From NCBI GenBank assembly GCA_023439545.1, contig JAEXNT010000036.1, positions 25,958 to 89,957 of the forward strand: a stretch of DNA of 64,000 bases. Reading direction: 5' to 3'. The translations under genes and the position numbers were made by a program. This DNA comes from Bacillota bacterium (GTDB lineage Bacteria > Bacillota > Clostridia > Acetivibrionales > DTU013). Each line of letters starts with the position of its first letter. Position 1 is the stretch's first letter. Positions 30,122 through 55,437 of the stretch are shown here, one piece after another. A model generated the notes under the pieces. The model did no database searches. It was not told where the DNA came from and saw only the letters and a list, made by a program, of their open reading frames with translations.

Positions 30122-30202
30122 GTATGTCAGCTAAAAAAGGATTTGTGGATTTTTTGTAGAAATTATAACTAAGAAAGCAAATAATTGGTGCAGAGGCCTG
30201 AT

Positions 30203-37125: not shown

Positions 37126-37185
37126 TTCATTCTTTCATCGTACTTACCCATACCTACGCCTCCAAAAATTTTACTTTGTCCGGTG

Positions 37186-37551: not shown

Positions 37552-37575
37552 AATACACCTCCAAGTTTAATTTTG

Positions 37576-38580
37576 TCATTCGACTGTTCTATTCAACTCT
37601 TCCAAATTACCCATGGATTGAGTGATACAGCTAAGGATTCCTGCAGATTTCTCAGTCAGAGTTGTCAAATTCTGCGCAATCTCATTCGCTCCTTTTGCAT
37701 TGTCTTCGGCGCCCGCTGCGATTCCGGAAACCTGATTGGCTATACTGCCTATTGTTGATGTCAATTTATCGATAGCAACAGCGTAATTTTCCATCATACC
37801 GTTTATACTGTTCGCATCGACGCTGTATTGTTCCCCTATATCCACAAGCTTTCTGTAATCGCTGATAACCTGTTTTTCAATGAATTCGTTCATTTTTTGG
37901 GAACTGGTAATCAGCTCACTTAAGAACTCATTCATGATCCTTGCGATGTCCTGAATATTCAGAACCGTTTCTTTGGTCTTGTCGGCCAGTTTTTTTATTT
38001 CCGCCGCCACAACCGTAAAGCCCTTTCCGTGCTCTCCGGCACGAGCAGCTTCTATCGAGGCGTTCAACGAAATCAGGTTGATTTGCGACGCGACTGCGAG
38101 TATGCTATTCGCAAGTACATCTATCTCACTTATTACCTTGGATTTGTCCACAGCAGACTGAAGCATATTGCTGAATTCATGACACATCTTTTGAGCGGCA
38201 GCTTCCGACTCAACGGCTTCATTCCTCATAACTTTCGCCTTTTCACTAATTTCCGCAACGGCGCCGATATTCTCGATAAGATTGACCGCAACGCCGGTTG
38301 CGAGGTCATTGACTTCAATTATGCCTGTGTTGATCTCCTCTGTAGAAGCTGCCGTCTCTTCGGTATTAGCGGACTGTTCCTCTACAACAGCTGCTATTTC
38401 GTCTACCGACAATTTCAAATCACTAACGTCCTGGGTTATACTTTCCATTCCTTCGATCACTTCAGAAAGCTTTTCTGGAACCAGTTCACTGTTTGTTCTT
38501 TTCCTGTTCAGTTCAATCATCGGATCATACATTTGGATCGGCTTGTTCTTCAGTTTGAACCCCATAAGATGAAAACTCAT
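37576..38580 (-). CDS. soluble methyl-accepting chemotaxis protein (signalling domain only)
   Basis: No TM segment. The MA hairpin core is [37 protein letters not shown] chose the start at MSFHLMG (38580) because AAAGAGG precedes it. Confidence 0.85.
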
Positions 38581-38883
38581 AGTGATACCTCTTTCAACAA
38601 AATTTACTAACAAAAAACAAATACATTTTTTCCTACAATAATGATATAGATATGTACGATATTTTTTTCGGTATTTTGTAATGATTTCTTTACGGAAAAA
38701 AGATAGATTTTTGTCACTTTTTAAAGAATATTGTCATTTTTCTGCATGATTTTTCCTCTCAAACAATAAAATTATCGTTTCCACAAACAATTATTGCCGT
38801 CTCGAATACCGGAACATATTATGCAAACCAAATTAAAACCTGAGGTGCATTCGTGAAAGACATTAGTAAACACTCAATAGTAA

Positions 38884-39640: not shown

Positions 39641-41785
39641 TCAGTTTGCCACAATGACCTTGTTTGTATTGTTGCCGAATTTTTTGCTGATGAATTTCTC
39701 CGCCTGTCCTGCCGGGTATTGGGCTTCCCTGCTTTGAACCGGGCAGGAGCTCATCGTCAATGTGTAGAATGTATTGTCATAGACTTTCGGCAGGTTTTTG
39801 TCCGCTATGTGGCAAGCGAATAGTGTGCCATAGCAGCCGAAGAACAGGTTATTATGAATACGGAGATATCTATTGGTATTGGGTAGGCTAGCTAAGCTCA
39901 GTCCGCTTCCCATAGGATCGCATTGGGTCTCCTGCGTATCGCCCCAGTTGAAGCCGCTCATTGTGACAATGTTATCAGAAACCTCAACGTCAGTCCAAAA
40001 CGGCTCCGCATTCTCATTTGTATCCCAATGTACAACAAGGATACCGGCATAAGTCCGCTCTACCAGATTCCTGCTGACGATGTTGTTGCGTTGAGGTCCA
40101 TGACAATCAGTTTCCAAAGTGATTCCTTCCTGAAATGTATCGTGGATATAATTGTTGACAAGTGTATTGTTCTGACCGCGAAGATCTGTAGCGCCCCCCG
40201 CTACATTTACCATATCTTTGTCCGGCTTATATAGCTCATCCCCATTGTCCGAGAGCATTAAGCCACCATTCCAGCCGATCTCACAGTTTTGGATCGTAGA
40301 ATTGGAGCTGCCGAGGATGATGCCCTGATTACCGGTGTAAAGTACGCAAAGATTGTCTGCTATTCCGCCGGAATCCAGTTCTATTAAAGCACTCTCCCCC
40401 GTATTTGCCGTACTTCCGAATTCGATGGAATCAAATACCTGGCTCGGATTACCTTCATCACAGCGAAGATACAACGGTCCATAGGGGTTAATCTCCGGAA
40501 ACCTGAGAGGCTCCCGTTTGTTTGTCTTGGGGAGTCCGTTGTCAACGCTGGAGAAGAACTCGTGGTTGCGATCAAGCTGTTTCTTAAGATCAAAATTCGT
40601 GCCGTCGGCGTTCATCCACCGTCCAAAGCGCCAATGGGGAGCGACCTTGTACGCCCAGCTTTTTGCATTGTTGAAATATAAATTGCCACAGTCGTACATA
40701 TCGCGGTAGAATTTCCAGATCTTTTTACCATCTGCATTTTCATAGTACAATGTCCACTTGCCTGCATCAGCGCCATCCTCAGGCGAGAGGGTAAAGAGGG
40801 GTTTATCGCCTTCTCCATAAGCGGAGTAGGTCACGCCCTTCTTGCCCTTCAAAACGTTACAGCGCCACATGTCACCCCGCTTAAAGAACACAGCGTCTCC
40901 GGGATCTAGGTCGGCGTTGTTGACCCTATCCACCGTCGCCCACGCAGTAGCTGGCGTCTTGCCATCCTTTGAATCGCTGCCATGGTTGGAGACGAAGTAA
41001 GCTGTGCCGGTATAGGTAACCTTCGTGGGGCTGTTCAGGATTTCTTTGCGTCGCGCGTCGATTTGTTTAATATATTTAAGACTCTTTTCACTGCACCACT
41101 TTGTATAATCCACTTTTGCTGCAACTTCCCAATCACTCTCGTATAAGCGCAGTACTGCCTTGATCGCAGCGTCACGAGTGAGGGAAGCACCGAAGCGGAT
41201 CAGGCCTTTTTCATTAAAGTCCAATATTGGAGACCCGTCCACAAAGGAGGGCTGTCTGGTTGCAAGATAACATGCGGCTGTTATATAATCATAATCCATT
41301 AATTTACGCTCGATTGGGCTATACCACTTTTTATTCCAGCCGGGGAACAAAGGATAGTTCCTTTTGACGCCGTCCCACCAGCCCACGCTATTATGTGTGC
41401 TGTCACCCCCAAGGAAGGGCTCCAGATTCATAGCGTTTCCGTCAGAATAAATTCTATCCGTGACCTGGGCAGCATACAGGATTGCCAACATTCCGTCGTC
41501 CCGATGCATTTTCTGATTGGATTTAAGTGCTAGAGCGGCAACCTTCTCCCATTTGGGGACGAGCGTCTTGCCATAGTGCGAGACATAGTTGGTCAGCATC
41601 CGGCAAAACTCGGCATAGGTAATGGCCTTGTCCAGATTACCCTGAAGCTCCTTGGGCACAAAGCCATAGGAGATGGCACGCTCTACCTCTTTGTCCACAG
41701 CAACGGCAAATGTAGTACTTGATATAAAAGAGGAAAGAACGGAAACTATCAAGATTAATGATAATATTTTATTACGTCTTTTCAC
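39641..41785 (-). CDS. secreted right-handed parallel beta-helix repeat protein (polysaccharide lyase/hydrolase-like)
   Basis: Signal peptide ILSLILIVSVLSSFISSTTFA. Beta-helix-type repeats follow in the C-terminal half (NCEIGWNGG, NNYIHDTFQEGITLE, SRNLVERTYAGILV, VSDNIVTMSG). Confidence 0.65.
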   Translation of the reverse strand: MKRRNKILSLILIVSVLSSFISSTTFAVAVDKEVERAISYGFVPKELQGNLDKAITYAEFCRMLTNYVSHYGKTLVPKWEKVAALALKSNQKMHRDDGMLAILYAAQVTDRIYSDGNAMNLEPFLGGDSTHNSVGWWDGVKRNYPLFPGWNKKWYSPIERKLMDYDYITAACYLATRQPSFVDGSPILDFNEKGLIRFGASLTRDAAIKAVLRLYESDWEVAAKVDYTKWCSEKSLKYIKQIDARRKEILNSPTKVTYTGTAYFVSNHGSDSKDGKTPATAWATVDRVNNADLDPGDAVFFKRGDMWRCNVLKGKKGVTYSAYGEGDKPLFTLSPEDGADAGKWTLYYENADGKKIWKFYRDMYDCGNLYFNNAKSWAYKVAPHWRFGRWMNADGTNFDLKKQLDRNHEFFSSVDNGLPKTNKREPLRFPEINPYGPLYLRCDEGNPSQVFDSIEFGSTANTGESALIELDSGGIADNLCVLYTGNQGIILGSSNSTIQNCEIGWNGGLMLSDNGDELYKPDKDMVNVAGGATDLRGQNNTLVNNYIHDTFQEGITLETDCHGPQRNNIVSRNLVERTYAGILVVHWDTNENAEPFWTDVEVSDNIVTMSGFNWGDTQETQCDPMGSGLSLASLPNTNRYLRIHNNLFFGCYGTLFACHIADKNLPKVYDNTFYTLTMSSCPVQSREAQYPAGQAEKFISKKFGNNTNKVIVAN

Positions 41786-42276: not shown

Positions 42277-42743
42277 TTATAATGACCTCAGCACTCGGCA
42301 GACTTTTATCAGCAGCTCGGGATCCGTATCAGCGTCAGCAGTGACACGGCAGCCACTGATTTCGATATCCAGCGTTGCTTTCATTTGCTGCGGTTTGTGG
42401 CGGTGCCAACTGCACCCATCCATTTGGCACAAGATTTCTGGAATCTTCCGATTTTGAAAGCTCTGCACACGTAGCATCCCGCAGCCTTTTCTGCCAGTAG
42501 AAGTATGCGTTCCTGCTTATTCCTGCCGTTAAGCAAAAATCCTTGATGCTTTTCCCGCTGTCAAGACGTGCTTGTATCACTTGCGCCCATTGCGACAATC
42601 GATATTCCGCCGTTACTTTTTGTGTGTCCATACAATCACCCCGTTTTTGGTTGAAAAAGTTTGCTTACTTTTTCAACTATACTCTTTGTGATTGTACTGC
42701 CTTCACTGTTGCTATACTATGTGCGTTTATCTTTGACGCTTAC
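42277..42743 (-). mobile_element. IS66-family remnant: terminal repeat plus frameshifted tnpA (orf1); tnpB and tnpC are absent
   Basis: The minus strand starts GTAAGCGTCAAAG at 42743, an IS66-type IR start. The tnpA-like ORF reads MDTQKVTAEYRLSQWAQVIQARLDSGKSIKDFCLTAGISRNAYFYWQKRL. Its C-terminal part is in another frame (ATLDIEISGCRVTADADTDPELLIKVCRVL). Nothing like TnpB follows. Confidence 0.7.
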
Positions 42744-42869: not shown

Positions 42870-43253
42870 TTATCTTATTGGGAATCCTAGTGTGGTCATC
42901 AGCGCCATAGCATTTTGTGAGGTATCCACTCTTGTATGTTGTATCAAAACGGGTACATCGCTTTCAACAACCAACGAGTACGGGACTCCTACAGGCACCA
43001 TTTCACCTTTATCATCTGTAAGTTTATCAAGGCGTATGTGATTGGTCCTTCGAGCACCACATACAGTATATATGTTTGTCATTGGTTCTTTATCATAAAA
43101 ATATAAAGTTACATTCAAATGGGCGTCTGCATCTCCAGAATTCAAAACGCACATCCCGTCATGACTTTCCGCTTCTCCGATGCTTTTGGGTTGTATGTAT
43201 CCATCTGATATAGCCCATACTTTATGTCCAATATATTTTGACACTATGTTCAC
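42870..43253 (-). CDS. ASRT-family protein (Anabaena sensory rhodopsin transducer homolog, PF07100-like)
   Basis: WAISDGYIQP...SHDGMCVLNSGDADAHLNVTLYFYDKEP...ARRTNHIRL...DVPVLIQHTRVDTSQ parallels the ASRT pattern WAIAEGYIPP...HE..CILN..D.DA.V.IT.Y..DKEP...ARRTKHVRF...VP.VVQHTRLDS, as I recall it. Confidence 0.7.
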   Translation of the reverse strand: MNIVSKYIGHKVWAISDGYIQPKSIGEAESHDGMCVLNSGDADAHLNVTLYFYDKEPMTNIYTVCGARRTNHIRLDKLTDDKGEMVPVGVPYSLVVESDVPVLIQHTRVDTSQNAMALMTTLGFPIR

Positions 43254-43684
43254 TCCTCAGCACTTATTGATTTATTTTGTACTACACCCACAGTTAACAG
43301 TATATTAGCATAAGTTCGTTGTTCTCCTGTAGCGACTGCTAATTTGATATTGTTCTTTTTGCATTCATTATAAAACTCAAACCTTCTCAAGCTGCTTAAT
43401 TCCAAACCTGTTATAGCTCGGAAATCACCAAATATGGCTGGCTCCTCCCCGGAGTCAGGCATCATGACCTCAACTTTTTCAATGTTAATTGTCTTTATAA
43501 ACACCTCCAACACTTCTGTTACCAAGGGAATGCCATGGGTAAGGTTTAAATATGTAACCTTTGTCTTCTCATTTACATTAGAGTCTACCGGATAATTGCC
43601 ATCGGTAATGAGTACCTTATCACCATGCCCACAGCTAGCAAGCACCTTAATGATTTCCGGATGTATACAAGCAGTTTTTAACAT
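43250..43684 (-). CDS. RbsD/FucU-family sugar mutarotase (pyranase)
   Basis: CGHGDKVLITDGNYP and the C-terminal YANILLTVGVV match the RbsD/FucU pattern. It overlaps the next gene by 4 nt. Confidence 0.85.
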   Translation of the reverse strand: MLKTACIHPEIIKVLASCGHGDKVLITDGNYPVDSNVNEKTKVTYLNLTHGIPLVTEVLEVFIKTINIEKVEVMMPDSGEEPAIFGDFRAITGLELSSLRRFEFYNECKKNNIKLAVATGEQRTYANILLTVGVVQNKSISAEE

Positions 43685-43701
43685 CTTGCTTCCTCCCGTT
43701 C

Positions 43702-44316
43702 CTATTTTTCATTCTCTCTCAAGTTTCCAAGAGTACCTCCCGGATGCCAGGTTACATATTGCTGCGGAGTAATATTCTTAATATCTTGAAGTATGATACT
43801 CAACCCTTGAAGTACAAGTATCTCTGCAGCTATTGATGCCCTTGGCGCCCTATTGAGGGAATCTCCTTCATTATGCACACCTGCAAACAGGAATGCATCC
43901 CCTTCCTTTGCCAGCCAGGAATCAGGTTTTCCTGTAACAGAAATAATTTTTGCACCATTTTTTTTAAGTGTTGTGATAGTTGCTTTTAATTCTGCTGTCT
44001 CTCCGCTGTTGGATATGGCTATAACTATATCCCCTGGTCTTACCTGTCCGGATGAGCCATGAACCGCTTCCGTGCCGTGGAGCTCATAGGTAGGTGTACC
44101 CGTAGAAGACATGAGAGAGGCAATATAGCCTGCTACATGTCCGGGTTTTCCTATACCTGTGATGTGAACTCTATTGTTGCTTTTTTCTGCATCAAGTATA
44201 AGATTAACTGCCTTTTCATAGAAGGTGATGGTGAGTTTTTCTTTCAATTCGTTGATTTCTTTTACCGATATATCCAGGAATGATTCCAGTACACTTTCAT
44301 GTTCTTGCAATAACAT
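43702..44316 (-). CDS. SIS-domain sugar-phosphate isomerase, KpsF/GutQ (arabinose-5-phosphate isomerase)-like but lacking the CBS pair
   Basis: ITGIGKPGHVAGYIASLMSSTGTPTYELHGTEAVHGSSGQVRPGDIVIAISNSGETAEL and the near-C-terminal WHPGGTLG resemble the KpsF SIS domain. At 204 aa the protein has no room for CBS domains. Confidence 0.75.
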   Translation of the reverse strand: MLLQEHESVLESFLDISVKEINELKEKLTITFYEKAVNLILDAEKSNNRVHITGIGKPGHVAGYIASLMSSTGTPTYELHGTEAVHGSSGQVRPGDIVIAISNSGETAELKATITTLKKNGAKIISVTGKPDSWLAKEGDAFLFAGVHNEGDSLNRAPRASIAAEILVLQGLSIILQDIKNITPQQYVTWHPGGTLGNLRENEK

Positions 44317-44332
44317 TTTTTATCCCCCTTTT

Positions 44333-45319
44333 TCATCTAACTAAACTGTAGCTGTTGCTTTCCATAAGATTAATTACCTCGTCATACATGGGCAGTGATG
44401 GCTGCGCCCCCATTCTTGAAACTGTAAGAGTTGCGGTATAATTTGCAAAATCTAAAGCAGCTTCTTCTGTCATTCCCATACAAACAGCAGTGCAGAATGC
44501 TCCTGTAAAAGAATCCCCTGCGGCTGTGGGATCCACGACCTTCACCACGTCCACACAAGGTTTGTATATGAATTTATCTTTATTCATAAAAGCCACACCA
44601 CTGCTACCCAGAGTAATGATTACATTTTTCACTCCCTTTTTAAGGAGAACAAATGCTGCTTGCTTAACTGTTGGCAGTTCGATGTTATTTCCGTCTCTTT
44701 TTATGGCAATGCCGGTTATATCCATGGCTTCATATTCATTTGGTGAGATATATGTAAATTTGGACAACATATTATCTGAAAGCGGTGCCGAAGGAGCAGA
44801 ATTGAGCATTACCGGAACGCCTTTAGAAAAAGCATATTCCACTACTGCTTCATTCACCTCCATGGGAATTTCCAGTTGAAGAATGACCATGTCATATTCT
44901 TCAATAATGTCCTGAACAAATTCAACATCTTTCACCGTGAGAGTCATATTGGCACCCGGAACAACAATAATCCTGTTTTTTGCTTTTTGGCCTTCTTTTA
45001 ACTCAAGGGTAATATTTCCAACGCCGGAGGAAGCCTGTGGATCAGAAATGACATAACGGGTATCAATCCCTGCATCCCTTGCGGATTTGATAAGCTGTTC
45101 TCCAAACATATCTTTACCCACTTTACCAACCATGGTTACATCAGCCCCGAGCCTGGCGGCCTGTACCGCCTGATTTGCCCCCTTCCCCCCCGTTGCTGTG
45201 GTAAAGGACATGCCGTCTATAACCGTCTCACCGTCATTTGGGACTCTCCTGGTTCCCACTATAATATCCATAACAAAGCTGCCAATGACCAATATTTTAG
45301 GCTTTTTCACATTTATCAC
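44333..45319 (-). CDS. rbsK: ribokinase (PfkB family)
   Basis: GGKGANQAVQAARLGADV and DPTAAGDSFTGAF are the ribokinase signature motifs. Confidence 0.85.
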   Translation of the reverse strand: MINVKKPKILVIGSFVMDIIVGTRRVPNDGETVIDGMSFTTATGGKGANQAVQAARLGADVTMVGKVGKDMFGEQLIKSARDAGIDTRYVISDPQASSGVGNITLELKEGQKAKNRIIVVPGANMTLTVKDVEFVQDIIEEYDMVILQLEIPMEVNEAVVEYAFSKGVPVMLNSAPSAPLSDNMLSKFTYISPNEYEAMDITGIAIKRDGNNIELPTVKQAAFVLLKKGVKNVIITLGSSGVAFMNKDKFIYKPCVDVVKVVDPTAAGDSFTGAFCTAVCMGMTEEAALDFANYTATLTVSRMGAQPSLPMYDEVINLMESNSYSLVR

Positions 45320-45326
45320 GCCCTTC

Positions 45327-46511
45327 CTAAGTGTTATCGGATATGATCAAATTCTTGAAGCTCGTGCCTGATAGTATGCACTCCACGCCAAGCAATTCAG
45401 CAACTGTACTTGCAACATCAGAAAAAGTGGTTCTTGTTCCGAGATCAACATCCTGCATCAAGCTCTTTCCAAATGCTATAATCGGCACATATTCCCTGGA
45501 ATGATCTGTGCTGGGTGTCGTGGGATCGCAGCCGTGATCCGCTGTAACAAAAAGAATGTCATTGTCTTTCATACAGGAGAATATTTCAGGCAGCCGCCTG
45601 TCAAATTCCTCCAGAGCACTTTTATATCCGGTCGCATCGTTTCTATGTCCATACAGCATATCGAAATCAACAAGGTTTGTGAAAATCAGTCCTGTGGTGC
45701 CACTCTTTAAATAGTCGATAGTTACATCTATACCATGCATATTGTTTTTAGTGTGAACTGCCTCTGTGATTCCTTTTCCAGAAAATATATCCTCAATCTT
45801 GCCTATTGCCACGATATTAAAGCCCTTAGCTTTCAACTCCTCAAGTATTGTTGGTGATACCGGCGGAAGGGAGAAGTCCTTTCTATTGCTAGTTCTAACA
45901 AAGTTTCCAGCTGTGCCTGTGAACGGCCTTGCTACTACCCTTCCTACTGCATGCTTTCCAGCTAAAATTTTTCTTGCTTCACTGCACATTTTATACAATC
46001 TTTCAATAGGTACTATCTCTTCATGGGCAGCTATCTGGAATACACTGTCTGCAGAGGTATAGACTATGGGATAGCCGGTTTCTACATGCCTGGCGCCGAG
46101 TTCTTTTATGATTTCAGTCCCCGAAGCAGCAACGTTTCCAAGGGTTTTTATGCCTATACTTTTTTCAAACTCGTCAATGATTTCCTTTGGAAAACCATTC
46201 GGATACACTGGAAATGCCCTTTCCAAATGTACTCCAGACATCTCCCAGTGGCCTGTGATGGTGTCCTTTCCCTTTGAGACCTCTGCCATACGCCCATAAC
46301 AACCTAAAACCTTCTCCGGCACATGAAGATAATCGATTCCCTCTATCTTCCCTATTCCCAGAGCACACATATTGGGTATACTCAACCCACCACATTGCTT
46401 TGATATGTTGCCAAGTGTATTGCTGCCTTCATCGTTGTATTCAGCCGCATCGGGGAGTTCTCCGATACCGGCGCTGTCCAGAACTATAATAATCACTCTA
46501 TTCGTGTTCAT
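45327..46511 (-). CDS. deoB: phosphopentomutase
   Basis: [36 protein letters not shown]...TADHGCDPT is the DeoB signature. The ATG at 46511 follows AAAGGTGA and lies 8 nt after the stop of the upstream 919-aa gene. Confidence 0.9.
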
Positions 46512-46519
46512 TTTCACCT

Positions 46520-49279
46520 TTATTTACTAACAAGTTCTATCTGGATCAGATTTTCAGCCTCTGCCTTTTGTTCAAAGAATGCCTTTGATAACTTGACAAA
46601 AGCGTTCTCCTCAAAGAAACAGTCTGCTTCCAAGCTTTTGCCATTGAACAGGACACGCCCCAACTTGTATTCGCCCCAATCCAGACCATCCTGATTCTTT
46701 ATAGCTAATGTTATCTTTTTCTCAAGATAAATGAAGTTTATCTTAATTTCCTTCTCACTCTTAAACTGATCTCTCACAAGCTTGGGGTAGATATTCAGAT
46801 CTCCCAGGTTTGGCTTCACACCGAACATCTCGGTGATTATACTGAAAATCAGCCAAGAGCCCGACCCTGTGAGGTAATTGTAACTGCCTCTTGCTGATTT
46901 GGAGTCAATAGATGCAGGTACCCCCGGGAAAATCCTGCTGACCTCGGAATTCATACAAAAGCCTGTTATGGTTGAAAACACTTCATACCCTTCCTTTACC
47001 AGGTCATTTGTATAAAGCCCGTTCATGTATTTCACAGCCATATGGTTATACTGTCCGCCGTTTTCCCTAGTCTTGAAGGCAAGGCCGAAGCCTCTTCCCA
47101 TAATATCAATCAGGCCATAGTCCTTGTGATCGGACCTTAAGATATATCCCCCGAAGTCATTGCGAAGGAATTTGTTAATGCTTTGATGTATTTCCCTTGC
47201 ACGCTTTTGGCCTGTAAGCCCAAGTACCATCAGATAAGCTTGAGGTGTAAGGCTTATATTGATGCCGCCTGAAGCATTAACTCCACCCAACCTCTCCATG
47301 GTATCAGTATAGTAAGCGTTATAGAATGAGAACTTGTCATCCACAGTAATATATTCTTGTTCATTGACAAGCTTAATAGCGAACTCCGCTTTCGCTTTCA
47401 AATCTGCAATTGCCTGCTGTATATCTAATTCAGCTAGGTTACCGGTTAAGCCCTTATCTAAAATATCGTAATAATGCTGCAGCCGACCCTGTTTCTGCCT
47501 GTAGTCTCCATAATCGATCTTGTTTTGTCCGGGAAGTGTATCAAATAAAGTTAACATCTCCTCATACACTTCGATAGTCTTTACTCCTGACCTGACGAGC
47601 TTTTCCAAGCATTCGCAGATGCCAAGGAGGTTTGCTGCATAAAAAGCTGAAAATTGTACCGTCTCACCGTTTTCCCTGGCCATGTCCATAGTATCGTCCC
47701 AGTCACCGGCTTCAAGAAGGGTAATATTATGTACTCCGACATTATAGAAGGAAGTAAGGTTTTGCACTAATAAATGTTCCAAAACAGTACCCATATAAAC
47801 AACATCGCTATTGGTTTTCTGCTTCAATCCATAGTCTGCTGTCCATGATCGGTCTGTTCCCTTGCCTCTTCTTGTAATATGATCTTTGAAGTAAAATGCT
47901 TTTTCGAACAGTATATCGAGATCTCCAGTCAGGTCCATGTAAAGCCTTGTAGTAAAATAAGGCCATACTCCATGATCGGACCAAGTGCGGCCAAGACCGC
48001 TTCTATGAGCAAATTCACCTGGATTGTCTCCCACCAGTGTCGCATTGGAACCATCAAGCTTGACCCCGTTGTAGTTGTTCATGATGTCCTTTTTGGTTCC
48101 ATAGGGATCTGCAATAATGATGGCAAGAAGATCCTGCCACAGCTCTCTCCAATACCTCTTCCCTGTACCATATCCATAGTCGGGAAGATAGCTACTGCCA
48201 AAAACCTTTCTCAAAAAGGGCTGGAAATTTACCCATTTTAAAAATTTATTCAATTCCTTGTCAGGAAACTCAAACTTGACCGAATCGACGTAGTCCTGCC
48301 AGAATTTCTTTGTTTCAGACAATGTTAAATCAAATTTTACGGAAGTATTGTACTTTTTTACCCAGTCTTCAATTAAATGTTCTTCTTCAGTGATACCTTC
48401 AATAATAATAAAGCTGTGAGTTTCGCCGGGATCAATCCTTACATTATCAAATTTGATTGCGCCAACAGCCTCTTCACCAGTCAGGTTCATTTCTTCAAAT
48501 TTCTGTGATGGCTTATTTGTGTAAACGGCTTCAGGAGCCTCCATAGATCCATTTTCACCAATGTAGTCGTACATTCTGCCAAAGCCCCCCGCTGCACGGG
48601 TTCCGTCGCCTTCATAACCTAATACGCAATAACGGGTAGGGTTTTGATATGCTCTTCTTTCGTCATGGATCATGATGGGATGCAGTATTATGCCATACTT
48701 ATTTGGCACAAGCCTGTTGCAAAGGGTACTTACATCTCTGTGGTCCCTAAGGTTTTCAGTTGTACGCCCATATAAGGCTACTGCATAGGATGAATTGAGT
48801 TCTATAAGTTCATTACCAAAATTGGTTACTTCCAACTTTATCAATTCAACAGGATCGTCGTTGGACGGAATAAAAACAGTCATCTCTGACTTCACCTTAT
48901 ACTCGGTATTAATCCTTTTTGTTTTGATCCAACCTATCCCTGCTTCTATTTCAACTTCGTCAGTATCTGTCCTCATTGCTGTCCTTAAATTGTTTTCAGC
49001 ACTAACACCCGTACATGACCAGACACCCTTATCCTTAATGTTGAGCCAAAAATTCCTTCCGTCTTTGGAATGATGCAGGTCTTCAGTGCTTTTAGGAATT
49101 GTAAGGTATTTATAGAAGTTTAAAAGGATATCCCCCTTCATCTCCGGAGTTAAATAGGATTTCAACTTGTTGTTACAAAGTGGAAGATACATCCTTGAGT
49201 TCTTGATCGGATTTTTTAAAATAAATGAGGCATCATCTTTTTCAGTAAATTGCCATCCATAGTCATACTTTTTTTGCAT
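46520..49279 (-). CDS. large cytosolic GH94-clan-like glycoside phosphorylase (COG3459-type); specificity unknown
   Basis: 919 aa with no signal peptide. The N-terminal region ([32 protein letters not shown]) resembles the cellobiose-phosphorylase-like N-domain. [14 protein letters not shown] resembles the DWND catalytic-acid motif of GH94-type phosphorylases. The family call is from memory of motifs only. Confidence 0.55.
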
Positions 49280-49399: not shown

Positions 49400-51541
49400 C
49401 TACAAATAAAACTTGCCAAGTTCATCATTAAGGTTCTGTGATAATTCCTTAAGTTGTCTGGTCATTTCATCCAGTTCATGAATGATTGCAAGTTGTTCTT
49501 GTGTAGATGCCGATACTTCTTCTGTAGCGGCCGCAGCCTCTTCTGACACTGTTGAACTCTTTTCAATGCTTGAAACAACTTGCACTTTTTGAACGCCCAT
49601 GGCACTCATTTCATCGGAAACTTGCTCCATATTGCCGTTTAAAATACCAATTGCTTCGTTTATCTTTGAGAACATATCTGAGGTATCTTTAACAGCTGAA
49701 TACTGATCTTTAATGACGATTTGGGCTCTCTCGACCAATTCGGCAGATAATTTGGTCTGATTTAATATCTGTTGGGCAAGAGTGTCTATTCCCTTGCTTG
49801 ATTCATGGGTCTGTTCAGCAAGTTTTCTTATCTCGTCCGCAATCACGGCAAACCCTTTTCCTGACTCTCCGGTGCGGGAAGTTTCAATCAAGGCGTTCAG
49901 CGACAAAAGTTTTGTTCGCTCCGAGATTGATTTCAGAATCTTTGTAATCTTATTGATATCTTTGACAAGAATGTTTAGCTGGCTTATATCTTCTACTACC
50001 TTTGTAGTGATTTCATTGGTTTCATACGCTTTTTTGTTTAAAACCGATGTTGTAATGATCCCTTCCCCGGCAATTTTCCCAACATGCTCCGAAACATTTC
50101 TCATCATTTGCACGGCTTGTATAGCTTTTTCAATTTCATCCGATAATTTTGATGCGGCACAAAAGCTTTTTTCAGCCTCATCTGCCTGTTCTATGGATCC
50201 GCTTGCTATTTCCGCTATCGCCGTTGTAACCTCAGACATTATACCGCTTGTCTTAGTACAGATTTGTGATATGTTATCACTTGATGTATTAACCTTGTCT
50301 GCCAAAGTCTTACTACCCGAAACCAGAGATCGTATTTGTGCAAGCATTGTGTTGAAGCTTTCAGCCAATGCACCGATTTCATCAGTTCTTCTAAGATACA
50401 AATTCGCCCTCAGGTCTCCTTTCGCGGCACGCCCCATGGCACCCATGAGCTTCTTCATAGGCAAAGTCAGTGATAAAGACACTAAAATACCTATTAAAAC
50501 CGTACAAACCCCACAAATAATTCCAAGAAAGATGACACGATTTCGGATACTCGATGTGACTGAAATTATTTCCTTTTCCGGGACAGCCGTTATGAACATC
50601 CACCCGGTTGTGGGTGATTTGCTGTAAGCTGCGATATAACTGGTTTCTCCCATCTTTTTTGTAAATACAAAGCTATCTTTCGTTTCAGCATATTTCACCG
50701 CTTCCTGTAAAATATTGTTATTCTCAACTCTTACTGATTTATCCAGCTCGCCTTCTTGGTTTATGACCTTGTTTGACTTTGTTACAATATAGCTTATAGA
50801 GTTGTTGCCCACCTGGACACTGCTAAGTATGTCTTTGAATGCAGCAGGTTTAATATCCAGTACAATGAGTCCCATAGCTTTATTATCAGTTGTAAGCTTA
50901 AAAGTCGAGAGATATGACAATATGTAATTGATATCATATTGGCTTGGAAGCTTTTCATTGTGTTCTTCAATCCAGATACCCTTACTGCTTTTTATTGCCT
51001 CCTGGAACCATTTAGCCGTATTGATTTCCATCTCTTTACTCAAGGAGGTCGGATAACATATAGCATCACCGGTATCTTTAATTAGAGCTATGCTGCTGAA
51101 GGTATCGGAAAACGCCGACGAAAGATCAGATACTGTTCGTTTGGCATTCGTCAGATTATTTGTCTCTTCTTCAATGCTTTGGTGCTCTCTGACCTTAAAA
51201 AAATCCGCAACCCCCAATCCATATCTGACCTGCATGGCATACCCATTCTGAAATTGATTGAGCGTATCTTCGAAATAATTCTCTGTTTGCAAAGTTGAAT
51301 TCAACAAACTTTCTTTTGCTTTTTTTATGAGGCTTGCAGAAGATGTATTAATAGATATATATCCGATAATCATAATAGGGATAATTATGAGTATCAAAAA
51401 TGTTGCGACAAGTTTGGCAAGTAATCCTTTAAGATTATCAATTCTTAGTATGTCCGTTACGATTTGTTTTTTAGTGCGGTGACCTACTTGATTCTTTTTT
51501 GAAACTAAATTTTTTTTGATCAAAAGATTACATCCTTTCAT
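49400..51541 (-). CDS. transmembrane methyl-accepting chemotaxis protein (Cache-like sensor, HAMP, MA domain)
   Basis: TM1 LVATFLILIIIPIMIIGYI, about 290 aa extracellular, then TM2, HAMP (PMKKLMGAMGRAAKGDLRANL...DEIGALAESFNTM) and the MA core LLSLNALIETSRTGESGKGFAVIADEIRKLAEQT. Confidence 0.85.
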   Translation of the reverse strand: MKGCNLLIKKNLVSKKNQVGHRTKKQIVTDILRIDNLKGLLAKLVATFLILIIIPIMIIGYISINTSSASLIKKAKESLLNSTLQTENYFEDTLNQFQNGYAMQVRYGLGVADFFKVREHQSIEEETNNLTNAKRTVSDLSSAFSDTFSSIALIKDTGDAICYPTSLSKEMEINTAKWFQEAIKSSKGIWIEEHNEKLPSQYDINYILSYLSTFKLTTDNKAMGLIVLDIKPAAFKDILSSVQVGNNSISYIVTKSNKVINQEGELDKSVRVENNNILQEAVKYAETKDSFVFTKKMGETSYIAAYSKSPTTGWMFITAVPEKEIISVTSSIRNRVIFLGIICGVCTVLIGILVSLSLTLPMKKLMGAMGRAAKGDLRANLYLRRTDEIGALAESFNTMLAQIRSLVSGSKTLADKVNTSSDNISQICTKTSGIMSEVTTAIAEIASGSIEQADEAEKSFCAASKLSDEIEKAIQAVQMMRNVSEHVGKIAGEGIITTSVLNKKAYETNEITTKVVEDISQLNILVKDINKITKILKSISERTKLLSLNALIETSRTGESGKGFAVIADEIRKLAEQTHESSKGIDTLAQQILNQTKLSAELVERAQIVIKDQYSAVKDTSDMFSKINEAIGILNGNMEQVSDEMSAMGVQKVQVVSSIEKSSTVSEEAAAATEEVSASTQEQLAIIHELDEMTRQLKELSQNLNDELGKFYL

Positions 51542-51566: not shown

Positions 51567-53690
51567 TTATAAATCCTCCTTCCAGTCTACTTCGCATACT
51601 GCATTCGAATTATTTCCAGCAACCTCTGCATATACGTAGTATGGTTTAATTACACTTTCATCAACCGGCTGGTATCGTATTGAATACTCCTTAGTTTCTC
51701 CGCTCTCTAATACATCCTTCAACTCAATCTCAGACAACCTGACTGCAATCGACCTTAAATACACCTGAATATCTGTTTTGTCTTTCCCCTTGTTTAATAC
51801 CCTTAAAATGCATTTCCGGTTTTTATGGTCTATGCACAAAAATGCCTCAATAAAGTCGGAAAAATCTACAATCAATGATTTCCTGTATCCGGAAAGCGTT
51901 GTGATATCATATTCGATACAAAATTCATTCCAGTTCAAAATTACCGTACCTTTTTTTAAAACTGGCAGTTCACTTATACTCAACCTTCCTCTTGTATCTG
52001 TTCTGTAGGTATATTCTTCAGGAATACGCAAAGTTGCTTCTGCTTGTACGGGTTTCCCCCTGTACTGGGTTTTTATTTTGAGGAGGAAGGGTTTTTCGGT
52101 TAAACTCAACCCATTCAACCAACCTCCATTATGGACAATCCAATCTTCGGTGTTCAAGTACGCAGGTCCGTCTACAGAATCATCCAGATGCTCCAGCTTA
52201 AACTGGGGATTGGCACAAAAACCGTTGCTTATCGACCCTTCGATATTCGTCCATGATTTGGAAAAGTTTTGCCCGACGCCGTTGATGAAACTGACTCCTT
52301 CATAAGAACCCGTGCTGGTTTCTTTACCGGCATTGAGTCCTGCAACCCACTGCATATTTTGTCCTGCGAGTACTTCAAATTCCCGGTCTTCAAACAGATG
52401 CGAAAGCAGCATGGATGTCCGCGCTATTCTTCCATACATACCGTTGAACCCATGCCAACTAGGCCCGAAAAACCTGACTTCTCCTTCAAATAATCCCAGT
52501 GGGTAAATACCGAAGGGTGTCAACAATGAAGTGGGCTTAAGATAGCCGTAAGCATATTGCCTGATAGTATATCTCCAATGAAGCCAATACTCCGCTTCCG
52601 GAAACATAGCCAAGAGATTCATAAATCCATTTAACTCATCTGGAAAAATAGTACCGCAGTTATACCCCCAGCCCACATGCTCCCAGGACTTTTGATGGAT
52701 CCCGCTGTTCTCCCATGCATAGAAATTGCCATATATATCGTTTTTACTGCCGGAATAGTCAAGATCCTGATAGTTATCACAGATTTCCGCAGCATATCGG
52801 ATTGCTTCAATTTTATACTTAACATCATTTGTGTTTTTGTAAAGCTCAGTTCCTGCCCACACAACAAGTAGTTTATCCCTACATCTGAGGCCCCTAGGGG
52901 GAACCCAGGGACTGTACTTGCCGAAAATTTTTCTTGTTTCTCCAATCTCTTGCAGCAGTTCCTCCCTGGAATACTGTATGTTGTCGTTACAATAGTTCCA
53001 ACCTTTTTTTGCTGCATCTAGATATTTAACATTATCTGTGATTTCATAGGTCCTAGCCAACGCAATTGTTGCCATCATGCCAAGTATCCAGCTCTTCTTG
53101 TCCTGTACGGAGTAGTATTCGTTAACAAAATAGCCCTCATCCCGTTGGCATAAAACCAGATAATCCGCTCCGCGGTGAATATGTTCTTTGAATCTCCTTT
53201 TTAGTTCATTATCCAAAGAATTGACCGATGCTTCATAATAATCAATCAATCCCAACAATTGCGCTGCATGCCCTTCCACAGCCCTGAGATCACTTCCGCA
53301 ATCCTGCCATCCGTATTTATCCCCTGCTTTTGCGTCAAGCTGTCCAACAGAAGTCTTTATCAACGTTTGTTCAGTAAATAAATCTCTCTTTATTCTGAAC
53401 TTGGAAGATTTCAGATTCATGGGCTGAAGTTCAAGATAAAATTCGCCTTCATTCTTACATTCGCTAAAATCTATTACCCAAAAGTGTATGCCCCACTTTT
53501 CTCCCCAGTAAGACACATCTTTAACGACAAAGCGAGAAGTTTCATTATTATCACTTATAAGGCTTATTTCCCCAACTTTAATAACTTCATCTCTAAAATT
53601 GCTACATCGAATTATACCGATCTTTTTATCTTCAGGCCTATATCCGATTTGTGATACTATGATAGAAAGTAAAGCCTCTTTCATCGCCAA
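51567..53690 (-). CDS. cytosolic GH9-like (alpha/alpha)6 protein with an N-terminal Ig-like domain (tentative)
   Basis: The N-terminal VSQIGYRPEDKK resembles the GH9 CelD_N start. YGWQDCGSD sits where GH9 has GGWxDAGD. There is no signal peptide. Confidence 0.45.
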   Translation of the reverse strand: MAMKEALLSIIVSQIGYRPEDKKIGIIRCSNFRDEVIKVGEISLISDNNETSRFVVKDVSYWGEKWGIHFWVIDFSECKNEGEFYLELQPMNLKSSKFRIKRDLFTEQTLIKTSVGQLDAKAGDKYGWQDCGSDLRAVEGHAAQLLGLIDYYEASVNSLDNELKRRFKEHIHRGADYLVLCQRDEGYFVNEYYSVQDKKSWILGMMATIALARTYEITDNVKYLDAAKKGWNYCNDNIQYSREELLQEIGETRKIFGKYSPWVPPRGLRCRDKLLVVWAGTELYKNTNDVKYKIEAIRYAAEICDNYQDLDYSGSKNDIYGNFYAWENSGIHQKSWEHVGWGYNCGTIFPDELNGFMNLLAMFPEAEYWLHWRYTIRQYAYGYLKPTSLLTPFGIYPLGLFEGEVRFFGPSWHGFNGMYGRIARTSMLLSHLFEDREFEVLAGQNMQWVAGLNAGKETSTGSYEGVSFINGVGQNFSKSWTNIEGSISNGFCANPQFKLEHLDDSVDGPAYLNTEDWIVHNGGWLNGLSLTEKPFLLKIKTQYRGKPVQAEATLRIPEEYTYRTDTRGRLSISELPVLKKGTVILNWNEFCIEYDITTLSGYRKSLIVDFSDFIEAFLCIDHKNRKCILRVLNKGKDKTDIQVYLRSIAVRLSEIELKDVLESGETKEYSIRYQPVDESVIKPYYVYAEVAGNNSNAVCEVDWKEDL

Positions 53691-53714: not shown

Positions 53715-54554
53715 TTATCCTTTTATTCCAGCCATTTTAATGCCTTGAACAATCTTATTCTGTAAAACTATGAATATAATAATAGTTGGAATGCATGCAA
53801 CGACGGCGGCTGCCATAATAAGATGCCAACTCACCACGTATTGTCCCTTGAACTGTACAATTCCCAATTGTATTACCCGCATTAGCGGTGAGTTTGTTAT
53901 TAGCAGCGGCCATAAGAAGCGATCCCAGTTACTGATGAAAAAAATGATTGCCAGAGCAGATAAAATAGATTTTGATGTAGGCATAGCTATTCTGAAAAAC
54001 ACAATAAGCGGACCGCATCCATCAATTGTAGCAGCTTCTTTCAGTTCTTTAGGAAAAGTAAGATAAAACTGCCTCAAGAGGAAAATCCCAAAAGCATGCG
54101 GAATCCAAGGAATAATTAAGCCCAAATATGAATCCAGCCAACCAAGCATCTTGCACAGCATGAAAAGTGGAACCATAATAGAGTAAAATGGTATCATCAT
54201 AGTACTTAGAATGCCAATAAAAACGCCTCCCCTCCCGGGAAACTGCATGGCACCGAGCGCATATCCAGCCATTGAATGAAAAATCAGCGCAAAGATCGTG
54301 ACTGAACTGGCAACAATAAATGAGTTCAACATATACCTCGCAAACGGAATATCTGTAAATACCTGAGTAAAATTTTCAAGATGGAATGTACTTGGGATCA
54401 ATGCAGGTGGATATTGCAAGACTAGATCACTGGATTTGAAAGAAGCAGATAACATCCAAATAATCGGGAAGAGAAACACAATACTTCCAAAAATAAGAAC
54501 TAATCTGAATAGGCCATTTTTCAACGCTTTATTTGAATTTAGATAATTATTCAT
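53715..54554 (-). CDS. carbohydrate ABC permease (MalG/BPD_transp_1 type)
   Basis: 6 TM segments and an EAA-loop-like KELKEAATIDGCGPLIVFFRIAMP. Confidence 0.9.
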   Translation of the reverse strand: MNNYLNSNKALKNGLFRLVLIFGSIVFLFPIIWMLSASFKSSDLVLQYPPALIPSTFHLENFTQVFTDIPFARYMLNSFIVASSVTIFALIFHSMAGYALGAMQFPGRGGVFIGILSTMMIPFYSIMVPLFMLCKMLGWLDSYLGLIIPWIPHAFGIFLLRQFYLTFPKELKEAATIDGCGPLIVFFRIAMPTSKSILSALAIIFFISNWDRFLWPLLITNSPLMRVIQLGIVQFKGQYVVSWHLIMAAAVVACIPTIIIFIVLQNKIVQGIKMAGIKG

Positions 54555-55437
54555 AGCTTCCTCCTTTAAACAGCTTTAACTGAAAGAGGGATACCAACAT
54601 AATCACACTGAACAACACTACCGAAGCTGCTGATGCTGCCCCCATTTTCATAAACTTAAATGCCTTCTCGTAAATATAGAAAACTTGCACATAAGTTGAA
54701 TAATCCGGTCCGCCCCGAGTCAGGACATAAACCTGGTCGAAATCCTGAAGCGCTGATATCATGTTGACGATAACAACAAAGATTATTACCGGCTTCAATA
54801 ATGGCAGTGTAATATTTAAAAACTTTTGCACAGAATTAGCACCGTCAATAACAGCTGCTTCATAATACTCTTGTGAAATATCACTCAGCCCTGCGAGATA
54901 TATAATCATATAATATCCCATCTGCTTCCAAACAGAGACAACGACAACTGAAAGGAGCGCTTGGTCCGCCGAACCAAGCCATGGTTGTGCCGGAATACCA
55001 AAAAAGCCGAGGATATAGTTAAGAACTCCGTACGATGGTTCAAATATAAACTGCCATACAACTGCCGCAACAATAATGGGCATTACGATAGGGAAAAAAT
55101 ATAGAGTCCTATAAATCTTTATTTCAGGAAGCTTAATATTTGTCATTATCGCCAGAAGTAATGAGCCAATGACTATAGATGGAACATACATGACAATATA
55201 TTTCAAAGTAACTCCAAATGATTTAAACCATGTCGGATCACTGAACATGCTTAAGTAATTTTCAGCGCCAACAAATATCTTTTCCCCGACACCAGACCAG
55301 GAAAAAAAACTTAAATATATAGTAAATAGCATGGGGCCAATGTAGATTAACAACAGTCCCAAAATATCTGGCGCCAAAAGAATATAAGCTGCCAATGTCT
55401 CTTGCGACTTTACAGTTTTCAATATTCTTCTTTCCAT
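54547..55437 (-). CDS. carbohydrate ABC permease (MalF/UgpA type)
   Basis: 6 TM segments and an EAA loop EYYEAAVIDGANSVQKFLNITLP. It overlaps the next permease gene by 8 nt. Confidence 0.9.
   Translation of the reverse strand: MERRILKTVKSQETLAAYILLAPDILGLLLIYIGPMLFTIYLSFFSWSGVGEKIFVGAENYLSMFSDPTWFKSFGVTLKYIVMYVPSIVIGSLLLAIMTNIKLPEIKIYRTLYFFPIVMPIIVAAVVWQFIFEPSYGVLNYILGFFGIPAQPWLGSADQALLSVVVVSVWKQMGYYMIIYLAGLSDISQEYYEAAVIDGANSVQKFLNITLPLLKPVIIFVVIVNMISALQDFDQVYVLTRGGPDYSTYVQVFYIYEKAFKFMKMGAASAASVVLFSVIMLVSLFQLKLFKGGSYE

Follow-up and report, generated by a model that had tools for sequence, protein, structure and literature searches.

A GH94-type phosphorylase paired with phosphopentomutase in Ruminiclostridium-type bacteria, a candidate furanosyl-transferring enzyme of D-arabinan use

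Here we describe an 11-gene operon from a Bacillota bacterium (Clostridia, Acetivibrionales, DTU013), located in a 64,000-nucleotide (nt) stretch of contig JAEXNT010000036.1 (positions 25,958 to 89,957; this whole stretch is called the window below), which encodes a 919-amino-acid (aa) variant of the GH94 phosphorylases directly followed by the phosphopentomutase DeoB. We propose that the operon serves the use of imported D-arabinofuranosyl oligosaccharides, from which the GH94 variant would release arabinose-1-phosphate (Ara-1-P) by phosphorolysis, to be converted to D-arabinose-5-phosphate (A5P) and on to D-ribulose-5-phosphate (Ru5P); we put the probability of this reading at roughly 0.55. 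The substrate would most plausibly come from the D-arabinan of Corynebacteriales arabinogalactan or lipoarabinomannan. A wider proposition, to which we give about even odds, is that the variant is the first furanosyl-transferring glycoside phosphorylase, that it acts together with the family of a 707-aa protein in an undescribed D-arabinose route (RbsD-like protein, 5-kinase, A5P isomerase and a DeoB junction), and that Ruminiclostridium scavenges mycobacteria-type D-arabinan by these means. A preliminary description of the same DNA had suggested a GH94-type phosphorylase that releases a pentose-1-phosphate for DeoB and an isomerase, and this suggestion gains computational support from a changed sugar subsite and from conserved linkage to deoB.

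The GH94 variant and its phosphopentomutase partner

The GH94 variant carries the Pfam GH94 catalytic domain PF17167 (1.7e-20) and the supersandwich domain PF06165, both above cut-off, and no signal peptide was found in it, in agreement with the cytosolic protein with a GDWDD motif noted earlier. Its best solved relative in a PDB search is the laminaribiose phosphorylase PsLBP (6GGY), matched over the full length with E 2e-210 and 38% identity. Structure prediction, one of the checks suggested in the preliminary description, gave a laminaribiose phosphorylase (LBP) fold: the AlphaFold (AF2) model (predicted local distance difference test, pLDDT, 90.3; predicted template-modelling score, pTM, 0.91) comprises an N-terminal beta-supersandwich, a helical linker, a catalytic (alpha/alpha)6 domain and, at the C-terminus, a jelly roll, and in Foldseek it reaches TM 0.93 to 6GGY/6GH3 and 0.74-0.76 to CBP/ChBP. 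Taken alone, the PsLBP match would place the protein in a family forming hexose-1-phosphates, which had been named beforehand as a ground against a pentose-1-phosphate product; this objection is lifted by the replacement of the residues that contact glucose.

In a search of 5.8 billion proteins, the variant was joined by 12 relatives at 67-77% identity, forming a clade of 13 Ruminiclostridium-type members, and beyond these nothing exceeded 40% identity; among 1.84 billion 50%-identity representatives the clade is a single full-length representative, with the next match at 40%. The stem of the clade is the longest internal branch of a neighbour-joining tree (0.393 versus a median of 0.029), and its members are 34-43% identical to all other LBP-like proteins, versus a mean of 46.5% among those proteins. 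The clade was compared column by column with 108 other LBP-like sequences, namely 107 database proteins and PsLBP. Thirteen of the 149 columns with a conservation of 93% or more in this set carry a different, fixed residue in the clade; the changes D379E, N528D, G374K, G376Y, R/K372T, K738R, R407K, D425H, N427S and M750K, each present in 13/13 members, fall in columns that are 98-100% conserved in the other sequences. Indeed, the Asp of the RD pair and the Asn of WND are found in 107/107 of the other LBP-like proteins, and are Glu and Asp, respectively, in 13/13 clade members. Several of the changes cluster in three motifs:

Family motif G(R/K)GGRGWRD, clade GTGKRYWRE (residues 371-379): R/K372T, G374K, G376Y, D379E
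Family motif DWND, clade DWDD (within GDWDD, residues 525-529): N528D
Family motif G-x-K-ENG, clade K-T-R-ENG (RENGGQYNH, residues 738-746): K738R

DWDD occurs in 0 of the other 149 listed matches from the library of 1.84e9 representatives, and RE in only three distant ones, all of which keep DWND. These three (P0235, P0246 and P0265; 25-29% identity, WRE for WRD) may represent a separate GH94 lineage, possibly with a non-standard donor sugar of its own.

The direct contacts to the glucosyl unit in a complex of a GH94 enzyme with glucose-1-phosphate (Glc1P) are made by the R-D pair, the Trp and Asp of W-N-D and a Glu (PMC5309861), residues that have been called highly conserved in GH94 (PMC5309861, PMC6771811) and that are conserved into GH149 and GH161 (PMC6484121); in ChBP and CBP, the Arg that lies six residues before this RD motif makes contact with ligands at subsites -1/+1 (PMC5309861). 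The clade keeps the catalytic D529 as well as R378, W527, E739, Y744, H746 and T804-G805-S806. D529 is invariant and aligns with the catalytic Asp of WND in PsLBP/Pro_7066 (PMC6771811), with Asp instead of Asn as the middle residue of the motif, and the E739/Y744/H746 pattern corresponds to E917/Y922/H924 of LpSOGP. The phosphate-site residues H746, Y744, T804-G805-S806 (the TGS motif) and R375 are conserved in 13/13 members. Thus, of the two observations that the preliminary description had considered fatal to its proposal, a conserved hexose subsite and the loss of phosphate-binding residues, neither was made: RD has become RE and WND has become WDD, along with the loop changes, and the phosphate site is retained. 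We read the variant as an apparently intact inverting phosphorylase scaffold with a changed donor-sugar pocket, and the two replacements of Gly by Lys and Tyr, together with that of Asp by Glu, would be expected to shrink the -1 pocket.

The deoB gene starts (ATG at 46511) 8 nt (aggtgaaa) after the TAA stop codon of the GH94 gene, as read earlier from the sequence. Its product scores 550 bits against NF003766 (cut-off 256) and 502 bits against TIGR01696 (cut-off 341), matches the Bacillus cereus phosphopentomutase 3M8W over residues 6-389 (456 bits, E 8e-136; PDB phmmer), and is by these scores predicted to be a canonical DeoB. Nine loci encoding the GH94 variant were compared: the window, seven genome loci (Ruminiclostridium cellobioparum DSM 1351, subsp. 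termitidis CT1112, and five Bacillota/Ruminiclostridium metagenome-assembled genomes) and one further assembled contig. In all nine, and hence in 8/8 independently recovered relatives, deoB is the gene directly after that of the variant, versus 0/13 other loci (0/3 LBP-like GH94 loci from outside the clade and 0/10 D-arabinan-type loci lacking the variant); a missing link to deoB among homologs, which would have spoken against the suggested pathway, was therefore not observed. The pair spans at least three operon architectures at protein identities of 67-77%. In locus L008 the overlapping genes run in the order 707-homolog, GH94 variant, deoB, isomerase of the SIS family, kinase and RbsD; in R. 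cellobioparum the order is solute-binding protein (SBP), permeases, GH94 variant, deoB, histidine kinase (HK), response regulator (RR), SBP, RbsD, kinase and SIS; and in L006 it is GH94 variant, deoB, SIS and ASRT. Because it recurs in 8/8 independently recovered relatives, the arrangement is not due to chance.

The putative D-arabinose genes and the transporter module

The 11 genes lie head-to-tail on the minus strand, spanning 56881 to 42870, with a divergent pair of regulatory genes beside them; all genes named in the preliminary description are present where it had placed them. In 5' to 3' order, after the regulatory pair, they are:

57125 to 58885, plus strand: sensor histidine kinase, divergent, probable operon regulator (Pfam dCache_1, HAMP, His_kinase, HATPase_c)
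58935 to 60521, plus strand: AraC-type response regulator, divergent (Pfam Response_reg and HTH_18/HTH_AraC)
55517 to 56881, minus strand: CUT1-type extracellular SBP of an oligosaccharide ABC importer (Pfam SBP_bac_1/8)
54547 to 55437, minus strand: ABC permease 1 (Pfam BPD_transp_1)
53715 to 54554, minus strand: ABC permease 2 (Pfam BPD_transp_1)
51567 to 53690, minus strand: 707-aa cytosolic GH9-like putative glycosidase (Pfam CelD_N)
49400 to 51541, minus strand: full-length methyl-accepting chemotaxis protein (MCP; Pfam dCache_1, HAMP, MCPsignal)
46520 to 49279, minus strand: GH94 variant, 919 aa, laminaribiose-phosphorylase fold
45327 to 46511, minus strand: phosphopentomutase DeoB (pentose-1-phosphate to pentose-5-phosphate)
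44333 to 45319, minus strand: variant kinase of the ribokinase family (PfkB domain), proposed D-arabinose 5-kinase
43702 to 44316, minus strand: CBS-less SIS protein of the KpsF/GutQ type (Pfam SIS, NCBIfam kpsF/KdsD/GutQ), proposed A5P to Ru5P isomerase
43250 to 43684, minus strand: RbsD/FucU-family pyranase/mutarotase, proposed to convert D-arabinopyranose to the furanose
42870 to 43253, minus strand: ASRT-family small beta-sandwich protein, predicted intracellular sugar sensor

Downstream of deoB the spacing is as tight as had been reported, with gaps calculated from the open reading frame (ORF) coordinates of 7 nt (deoB to kinase), 16 nt (kinase to SIS) and 17 nt (SIS to RbsD) and a 4-nt overlap of the RbsD and ASRT genes. 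Equally in line with the earlier account, no nucleoside phosphorylase domain was found among the scanned window ORFs.

The kinase had been called a ribokinase; its assignment to the PfkB/ribokinase family stands, but its scores lie below both equivalog cut-offs (TIGR02152 298.2, cut-off 299.65; NF008353 236, cut-off 341), and it lacks the Asn of the ribokinase motif GSxNxD. It reads GSFVMD instead of GS[IL]N[AM]D, with Val or Met in place of Asn here and in the orthologs linked to the GH94 variant, and the Asn is replaced in 118/120 of its homologs (GSFVMD, GSLVMD and similar), a subfamily that is widespread in Clostridia. We take Asn14/Asp16 of E. coli RbsK to be the corresponding ribose-binding N-x-D. 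The SIS protein (204 aa) was correctly described as a KpsF/GutQ-like protein with WHPGGTLG, and no CBS domain was detected in it; it scores 126.5 against TIGR00393, below the cut-off of 203.7, over positions 2-151 of the 268-position profile, and its closest PDB matches are the single-domain arabinose-5-phosphate isomerases 5UQI, 2XHZ (KdsD SIS domain) and 3ETN. A SIS gene is present in 5/9 loci of the GH94 variant, and the copies in L004, L006 and L007 are 75-76% identical. The assignments of the last two genes were likewise borne out (PF05025, 6.8e-32, for the RbsD/FucU protein; PF07100, 1.1e-40, for ASRT). The RbsD-like protein falls below both the RbsD and the FucU NCBIfam cut-offs, and its gene is conserved in L004, L007, L008 and the stand-alone cassettes L018/L019; an 83% identical ASRT copy directly follows SIS in L006, and a role as intracellular sugar sensors has been predicted for ASRT proteins (PMC2739507).

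Fusions of the kinase with SIS (PfkB-SIS) make up six protein clusters, and such fusion shows that the product of the kinase would be the substrate of the isomerase. The kinase-SIS-RbsD cassette looks like an undescribed D-arabinose route, leading from D-arabinose to A5P and Ru5P. Headed by a LacI gene, this cassette is widely distributed in Clostridia, gut species among them (L018/L019, Anaerotruncus colihominis-type contigs; L020, L021), and its cassette and fusion proteins include P0356-P0358, P0369, P0375 and P0395.

The window SBP, permease 1, permease 2 and 707-aa protein are orthologous to those of the L012/L013 operon (79%, 64%, 74% and 55% identity, respectively), which runs LacI, SBP, permease, permease, 707-homolog and, as its last gene, GH116. 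Orthologs of the window SBP were also found in L015 (72%), L016 (65-67%) and L017 (54%), and an HK/AraC-type RR pair of the same type as in the window flanks the orthologous SBP/707 modules of L015 and L016. The L012/L013 GH116 protein scores 712 bits against ExoMA2, versus ~108 bits against GH116 beta-glucosidases, and keeps the equivalents of ExoMA2 Glu431, His446, Arg483 and Asp557 (nucleophile, acid/base and the His446/Arg483 pair). ExoMA2 is an exo-beta-D-arabinofuranosidase of Microbacterium arabinogalactanolyticum, in which His446/Arg483 were singled out for recognition of arabinofuranose (Araf) (PMC10509167). L017 combines two 707-family genes and the orthologous SBP with a GH116 that keeps the same four residues. 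Since the orthologous SBP/permease/707 modules end in GH116, the GH94 variant and DeoB appear to take the place held by a beta-D-arabinofuranosidase in the sister operons, as a non-homologous replacement.

The 707-aa protein, in which no signal peptide was found and which gave no match in a PDB sequence search, is modelled (AF2, pLDDT 94.6) as a CelD_N Ig domain, an (alpha/alpha)6 barrel and C-terminal beta-sandwiches, with GH9 enzymes as the best Foldseek matches (12-17% identity). Its family is rare, with 49 homologs in 5.8e9 proteins; homologs adjoin GH116 subfamily-4 enzymes in L012, L013 and L017 and lie upstream of the GH94-deoB pair in L008, and FucI and FGGY genes occur near 707-family genes in Conexibacter and L017. 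The protein is a candidate founder of a new family of intracellular D-arabino-oligosaccharide hydrolases, possibly with specificity for alpha-D-Araf, which is a guess from context. Homologs occur in L008 and L012-L017, and long forms of about 1217 aa (e.g. in Conexibacter woesei) carry additional DUF1080/Laminin_G_3-like domains.

Both kinase-SIS fusion loci examined, L020 and L021, adjoin GH172, and L021 also contains GH183. In L020 the order is HK, RR, SBP, SBP, permeases, fusion and GH172; this GH172 is closest to 4KQ7 and DgGH172c, and has Cys at the position of aFFase1 Gly299, as does the Araf-active DgGH172c, an enzyme active on p-nitrophenyl-alpha-D-Araf, arabinogalactan and lipoarabinomannan (PMC10115798). 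In L021 the order is GH172, LacI, DUF4185 (the GH183 endo-D-arabinanase family), SBP, permeases, a 670-aa protein and the fusion, a gene set that we regard as the hallmark of a D-arabinan locus. The 670-aa protein shares 39-40% identity with the products of genes directly after the 707-homologs in L015 and L016, and the L021 SBP is 39-44% identical to SBPs of other loci of the GH94 variant; by these identities, both locus architectures of the variant are tied to D-arabinan-type loci.

Together, the GH116-type sister operons, the kinase/SIS genes next to GH172/GH183 and the isomerase, which is probably of the A5P/Ru5P type, a type with no role in a ribose pathway, favour D-arabinofuranose as the pentose in question. 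Of the two sugars put forward in the preliminary description, D-arabinofuranose thus gains from the module, kinase/SIS and isomerase context, and D-ribofuranose is disfavoured by it. The substrate would probably be supplied by D-arabinan oligosaccharides. Pathways for D-apiose, xylose and L-arabinose were also considered, and none fits the combination of DeoB, A5P isomerase and ribokinase-like genes.

Proposed pathway and rival explanations

According to the proposed pathway, the ABC system would import the oligosaccharide, which the cytosolic GH9-like 707-aa enzyme would trim, freeing D-arabinose. The inverting GH94 variant, using Asp529 and its phosphate site, would convert a beta-D-arabinofuranoside and phosphate to alpha-D-Araf-1-phosphate (alpha-D-Araf-1-P) and a shortened sugar, and DeoB would turn the former into A5P. 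Free D-arabinose would reach the same intermediate by conversion to the furanose by the RbsD-like protein and phosphorylation at O5 by the kinase, and the CBS-less KpsF-type isomerase would then pass A5P as Ru5P into the pentose phosphate pathway. Sensing would be provided by ASRT, MCP and the histidine kinase/AraC pair, and phosphorolysis would save one ATP per residue relative to hydrolysis followed by the kinase.

An inverting enzyme acting on a beta-D-furanoside yields the alpha-1-phosphate, which is the anomer used by DeoB-type mutases and nucleoside phosphorylases. In preparative in vitro cascades, ribokinase and phosphopentomutase of E. coli and Thermus process D-arabinose via A5P and alpha-D-Ara-1-P (PMC8073115). 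D-arabinan bears beta-D-Araf-(1->2) caps at its non-reducing ends, which are removed by ExoMA2, and in GH116 an (alpha/alpha)6 beta-glucosidase pocket has been retuned to beta-D-Araf by a few substitutions (PMC10509167). Full-text literature searching found no paper linking glycoside phosphorylases with phosphopentomutase, no D-arabinan phosphorylase or GH94 enzyme acting on D-arabinofuranosides, and no catabolic kinase/A5P isomerase route for D-arabinose.

Several points weigh against D-arabinofuranoside phosphorolysis. We know of no glycoside phosphorylase with a furanosyl donor, and a furanose in the -1 site of GH94 would be without precedent. The active-site mapping relies on alignment and the literature rather than on measured distances. 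The YTSADSV stretch of DeoB, which we take to line the sugar pocket of phosphopentomutases, is identical to that of the B. cereus enzyme, with no visible specialisation. Neither GH183, GH172 nor GH116 was found in the 64-kb window or in the other loci of the GH94 variant, and the connection to D-arabinan is an association via orthologous modules in metagenomic contigs. Finally, the other loci of the variant have different transporters and different neighbouring enzymes, and their natural substrates may differ.

Four other explanations bear on the same evidence. We consider it unlikely that the variant acts on a different furanoside or unusual sugar (D-fructofuranoside, D-galactofuranoside or L-arabinofuranoside), or has turned into a hydrolase or transglycosylase, with the D-arabinose cassette merely co-located. 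GH172 relatives do also accept alpha-D-fructofuranosides (PMC10509167), beta-D-Galf is also part of mycobacterial arabinogalactan (PMC10115798), and a domain resembling CBM66, a carbohydrate-binding module (CBM) of levanase (E 2e-14), is present in ~1000-aa neighbours of the variant in L002, L003, L005 and L006; but DeoB acts on pentose-1-phosphates, genes for handling hexofuranoses are absent, the residues of the phosphate site are kept, and the Cys of the L020 GH172 is that of an Araf-active enzyme. Slightly less probable still is an enzyme that continues to make alpha-D-Glc-1-P, or another hexose-1-phosphate, and is altered only at its +1 site, so as to split a beta-glucosyl-pentose such as Glc-beta-D-arabinose, with the pentose entering via RbsD, kinase and isomerase and DeoB linked in some other way. 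The characterised GH94 enzymes are all known to form Glc1P or GlcNAc1P, and E739, R378 and W527 of the -1 site are kept. R/K372T and the changes in the loop could also have an effect on the +1 site (PMC5309861). However, GH94 enzymes with very different acceptors keep both RD and WND, and the clade changes both; moreover, this explanation leaves no role for DeoB, the invariably adjacent gene (9/9), and no phosphoglucomutase or glucose-handling gene was found in the operon.

Phosphorolysis of beta-D-ribofuranosides, for instance from ribofuranose-containing bacterial polysaccharides, to alpha-D-ribose-1-phosphate, followed by DeoB to ribose-5-phosphate and with ribose salvaged by RbsD and ribokinase, seems to us less likely again. 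It would give DeoB its canonical substrate, in keeping with the equivalog score, and would suit a kinase so near the ribokinase cut-off, an RbsD-family protein in the operon and the 1,2-trans configuration that beta-D-Ribf shares with beta-D-Glcp. Yet it leaves unexplained the probable A5P-type isomerase, which is found in 5/9 loci, fused to the kinase elsewhere and near GH172/GH183, and it is at odds with the loss of the GSxNxD Asn across the kinase family and with a transporter/707 module whose orthologs pair with a beta-D-arabinofuranosidase, not a ribosidase. Very improbable, finally, is an ordinary laminaribiose or beta-1,3-glucoside phosphorylase whose deoB/rbsK/SIS neighbourhood is a lineage-specific accident of gene order. 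Despite the strong PsLBP match, the shared fold and public annotations that label the relatives "cellobiose phosphorylase", we dropped this identification on the column-by-column comparison and the context survey: identity to PsLBP and to other LBP-like proteins is low, the otherwise invariant glucose-contact residues are replaced, adjacency to deoB survives operon rearrangement at 67-77% protein identity, and no beta-glucan genes were found nearby.

To our knowledge, and as far as literature searching shows, all glycoside phosphorylases that have been characterised transfer hexopyranosyl units. One acting on furanosides would represent a new class of reaction in a family that is well studied, with family and mechanism known and the donor-sugar class and pathway wiring new. 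Alpha-D-arabinofuranose-1-phosphate is a key, awkward intermediate for the arabinonucleoside drugs vidarabine, fludarabine and nelarabine, and could also serve as a donor in the assembly of mycobacterial D-arabinan fragments, so an enzyme making or using it reversibly from cheap glycosides would be useful. If correct, D-arabinofuranoside phosphorolysis would give D-arabinan degradation, a field opened only in 2023, a phosphorolytic branch that saves ATP and a new route for D-arabinose (5-kinase and A5P isomerase), and it would provide a physiological, catabolic role for the puzzling arabinose-5-phosphate isomerases found in Gram-positive bacteria, organisms that make no Kdo. D-arabinan turnover would, in addition, be known from cellulolytic anaerobes among the Clostridia and from gut Clostridia with the kinase/SIS/RbsD cassette, with cellulolytic Ruminiclostridium conserving energy while scavenging the D-arabinan of mycobacteria-type cell walls.

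Neighbouring genes and comparison with known systems

Within the operon, the MCP gene sits between those of the 707-aa putative glycosidase and the GH94 variant, with a 120-nt gap before the latter, an arrangement not seen in related loci; the embedded MCP may link chemotaxis to the substrate of the operon. Counts in a promoter/terminator scan equalled the shuffle expectation, and a hairpin 3' of ASRT has no T-run. Directly downstream of ASRT lies a 98-aa ORF (42335-42631, minus strand) with a weak, sub-cut-off transposase helix-turn-helix (HTH) match (HTH_Tnp_1), and beyond it a gene for a 714-aa right-handed beta-helix protein (39641-41785, minus strand), which has no counterpart in any related locus; the two may mark an insertion boundary of the operon.

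Further genes flank the variant in other loci. Upstream of its locus in R. cellobioparum DSM 1351 (L004, 160-3915) is a gene whose 1251-aa product, a surface protein, contains three SLH domains, fn3 and an SWM repeat; this product could be an extracellular depolymerase or a binding protein for the substrate. A ~1000-aa protein flanks the GH94-deoB pair in L002 (14062-17537; apparently split or frameshifted, 114 + 1045 aa), L003 (6347-9823), L005 (14063-17536) and L006 (10933-13887). Its C-terminal ~150 aa, which resemble the levanase CBM66 (4B1L), share 36-37% identity with the extension at the C-terminus of the long 707-family proteins, which suggests that the two may share a binding module. 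Proteins of 650-700 aa encoded within the GH172/GH183 locus of L021 (7937-9949) and directly after the 707-homologs in L015 (12118-14217) and L016 (12079-14022) give faint GH88/GH127-like matches only, and may represent another arabinofuranosidase family. Pfam returned nothing above threshold for the ~1000-aa and ~650-700-aa neighbours, and a PDB search with a 660-aa protein of L002 gave marginal GH5 matches only.

Elsewhere in the window, a second sugar system, a monosaccharide ABC importer of the ribose/xylose type, is encoded at 20556-26667 (minus strand; zinc alcohol dehydrogenase, Peripla_BP_4, BPD_transp_2, double ABC ATPase and ROK-family regulator). Two tandem genes (15130-17823 and 17867-20455, plus strand) encode 860-900-aa proteins with PQQ-like beta-propellers, Big_2 in the first and weak matches to lambda-carrageenase propellers. 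Signalling genes near the operon (35098-38613, minus strand; 30185-31846, plus strand) encode PAS-GGDEF-EAL, a soluble MCP-signal protein with a SpoIIAA-like neighbour, and PAS-GGDEF-HD.

Among characterised enzymes, PsLBP of Paenibacillus sp. YM-1 (6GGY, 6GH2, 6GH3) is similar in size to the GH94 variant and shares with it the cytosolic location and four-domain fold, the catalytic Asp in the W-x-D loop and, in the phosphate site, the positions of His, Thr-Gly-Ser and Arg375. It differs in having RD, WND, GRGGRG and K-ENG where the variant has RE, WDD, GTGKRY and R-ENG, as well as in four more conserved columns, and the variant has deoB and putative D-arabinose genes as its genomic partners, in place of beta-glucan genes. 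ExoMA2 (GH116 subfamily 4; 8IC6/8IC7; PMC10509167) would attack the same bond, that of the terminal beta-D-Araf of imported D-arabino-oligosaccharides inside the cell, and GH116 enzymes of this type are encoded at the corresponding place in their operons, behind an orthologous module of SBP, permeases and 707-homolog. Both are (alpha/alpha)6 scaffolds of the beta-glucoside type with a retuned -1 subsite, in the variant presumably so. They belong, however, to unrelated families: ExoMA2 is a retaining hydrolase releasing free D-arabinose, whereas the variant would be an inverting phosphorylase releasing Ara-1-P, and the loci with ExoMA2-type GH116 contain no (0) DeoB.

At the pathway level, the D-arabinan loci of Dysgonomonas gadei (PUL42) and M. 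arabinogalactanolyticum (PMC10115798, PMC10509167) likewise couple oligosaccharide import and intracellular exo-enzymes to the conversion of D-arabinose to Ru5P, and the related Bacillota loci L020 and L021 join GH172 (in L021 also GH183) to the kinase/SIS module. In contrast to the window, which lacks GH172, GH183 and GH116 and appears to use 5-phosphorylation and an A5P isomerase plus a phosphorolytic DeoB branch, the D. gadei and M. arabinogalactanolyticum loci use a FucI-type isomerase and a kinase, leading from D-arabinose via D-ribulose to Ru5P, a route that fits the FucI and FGGY genes near 707-family genes in Conexibacter and L017. The logic of deo-type nucleoside salvage, in which phosphorolysis of a beta-D-pentofuranosyl compound gives an alpha-pentose-1-phosphate that DeoB converts to the 5-phosphate, would be shared by the operon with its seemingly canonical DeoB; unlike in deo-type salvage, the phosphorylase is of the GH94 O-glycoside type instead of the purine nucleoside phosphorylase (PNP)/uridine phosphorylase or thymidine phosphorylase fold, and the sugar is probably arabinose in place of ribose or deoxyribose. 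The closest parallel in chemistry is provided by the ribokinase/phosphopentomutase/PNP cascades for arabinonucleosides (PMC8073115), in which ribokinase-type kinases and DeoB-type mutases interconvert D-arabinose, A5P and alpha-D-Ara-1-P. These cascades are engineered, promiscuous and run in the synthetic direction, whereas the window would encode a natural catabolic route with a dedicated kinase variant.

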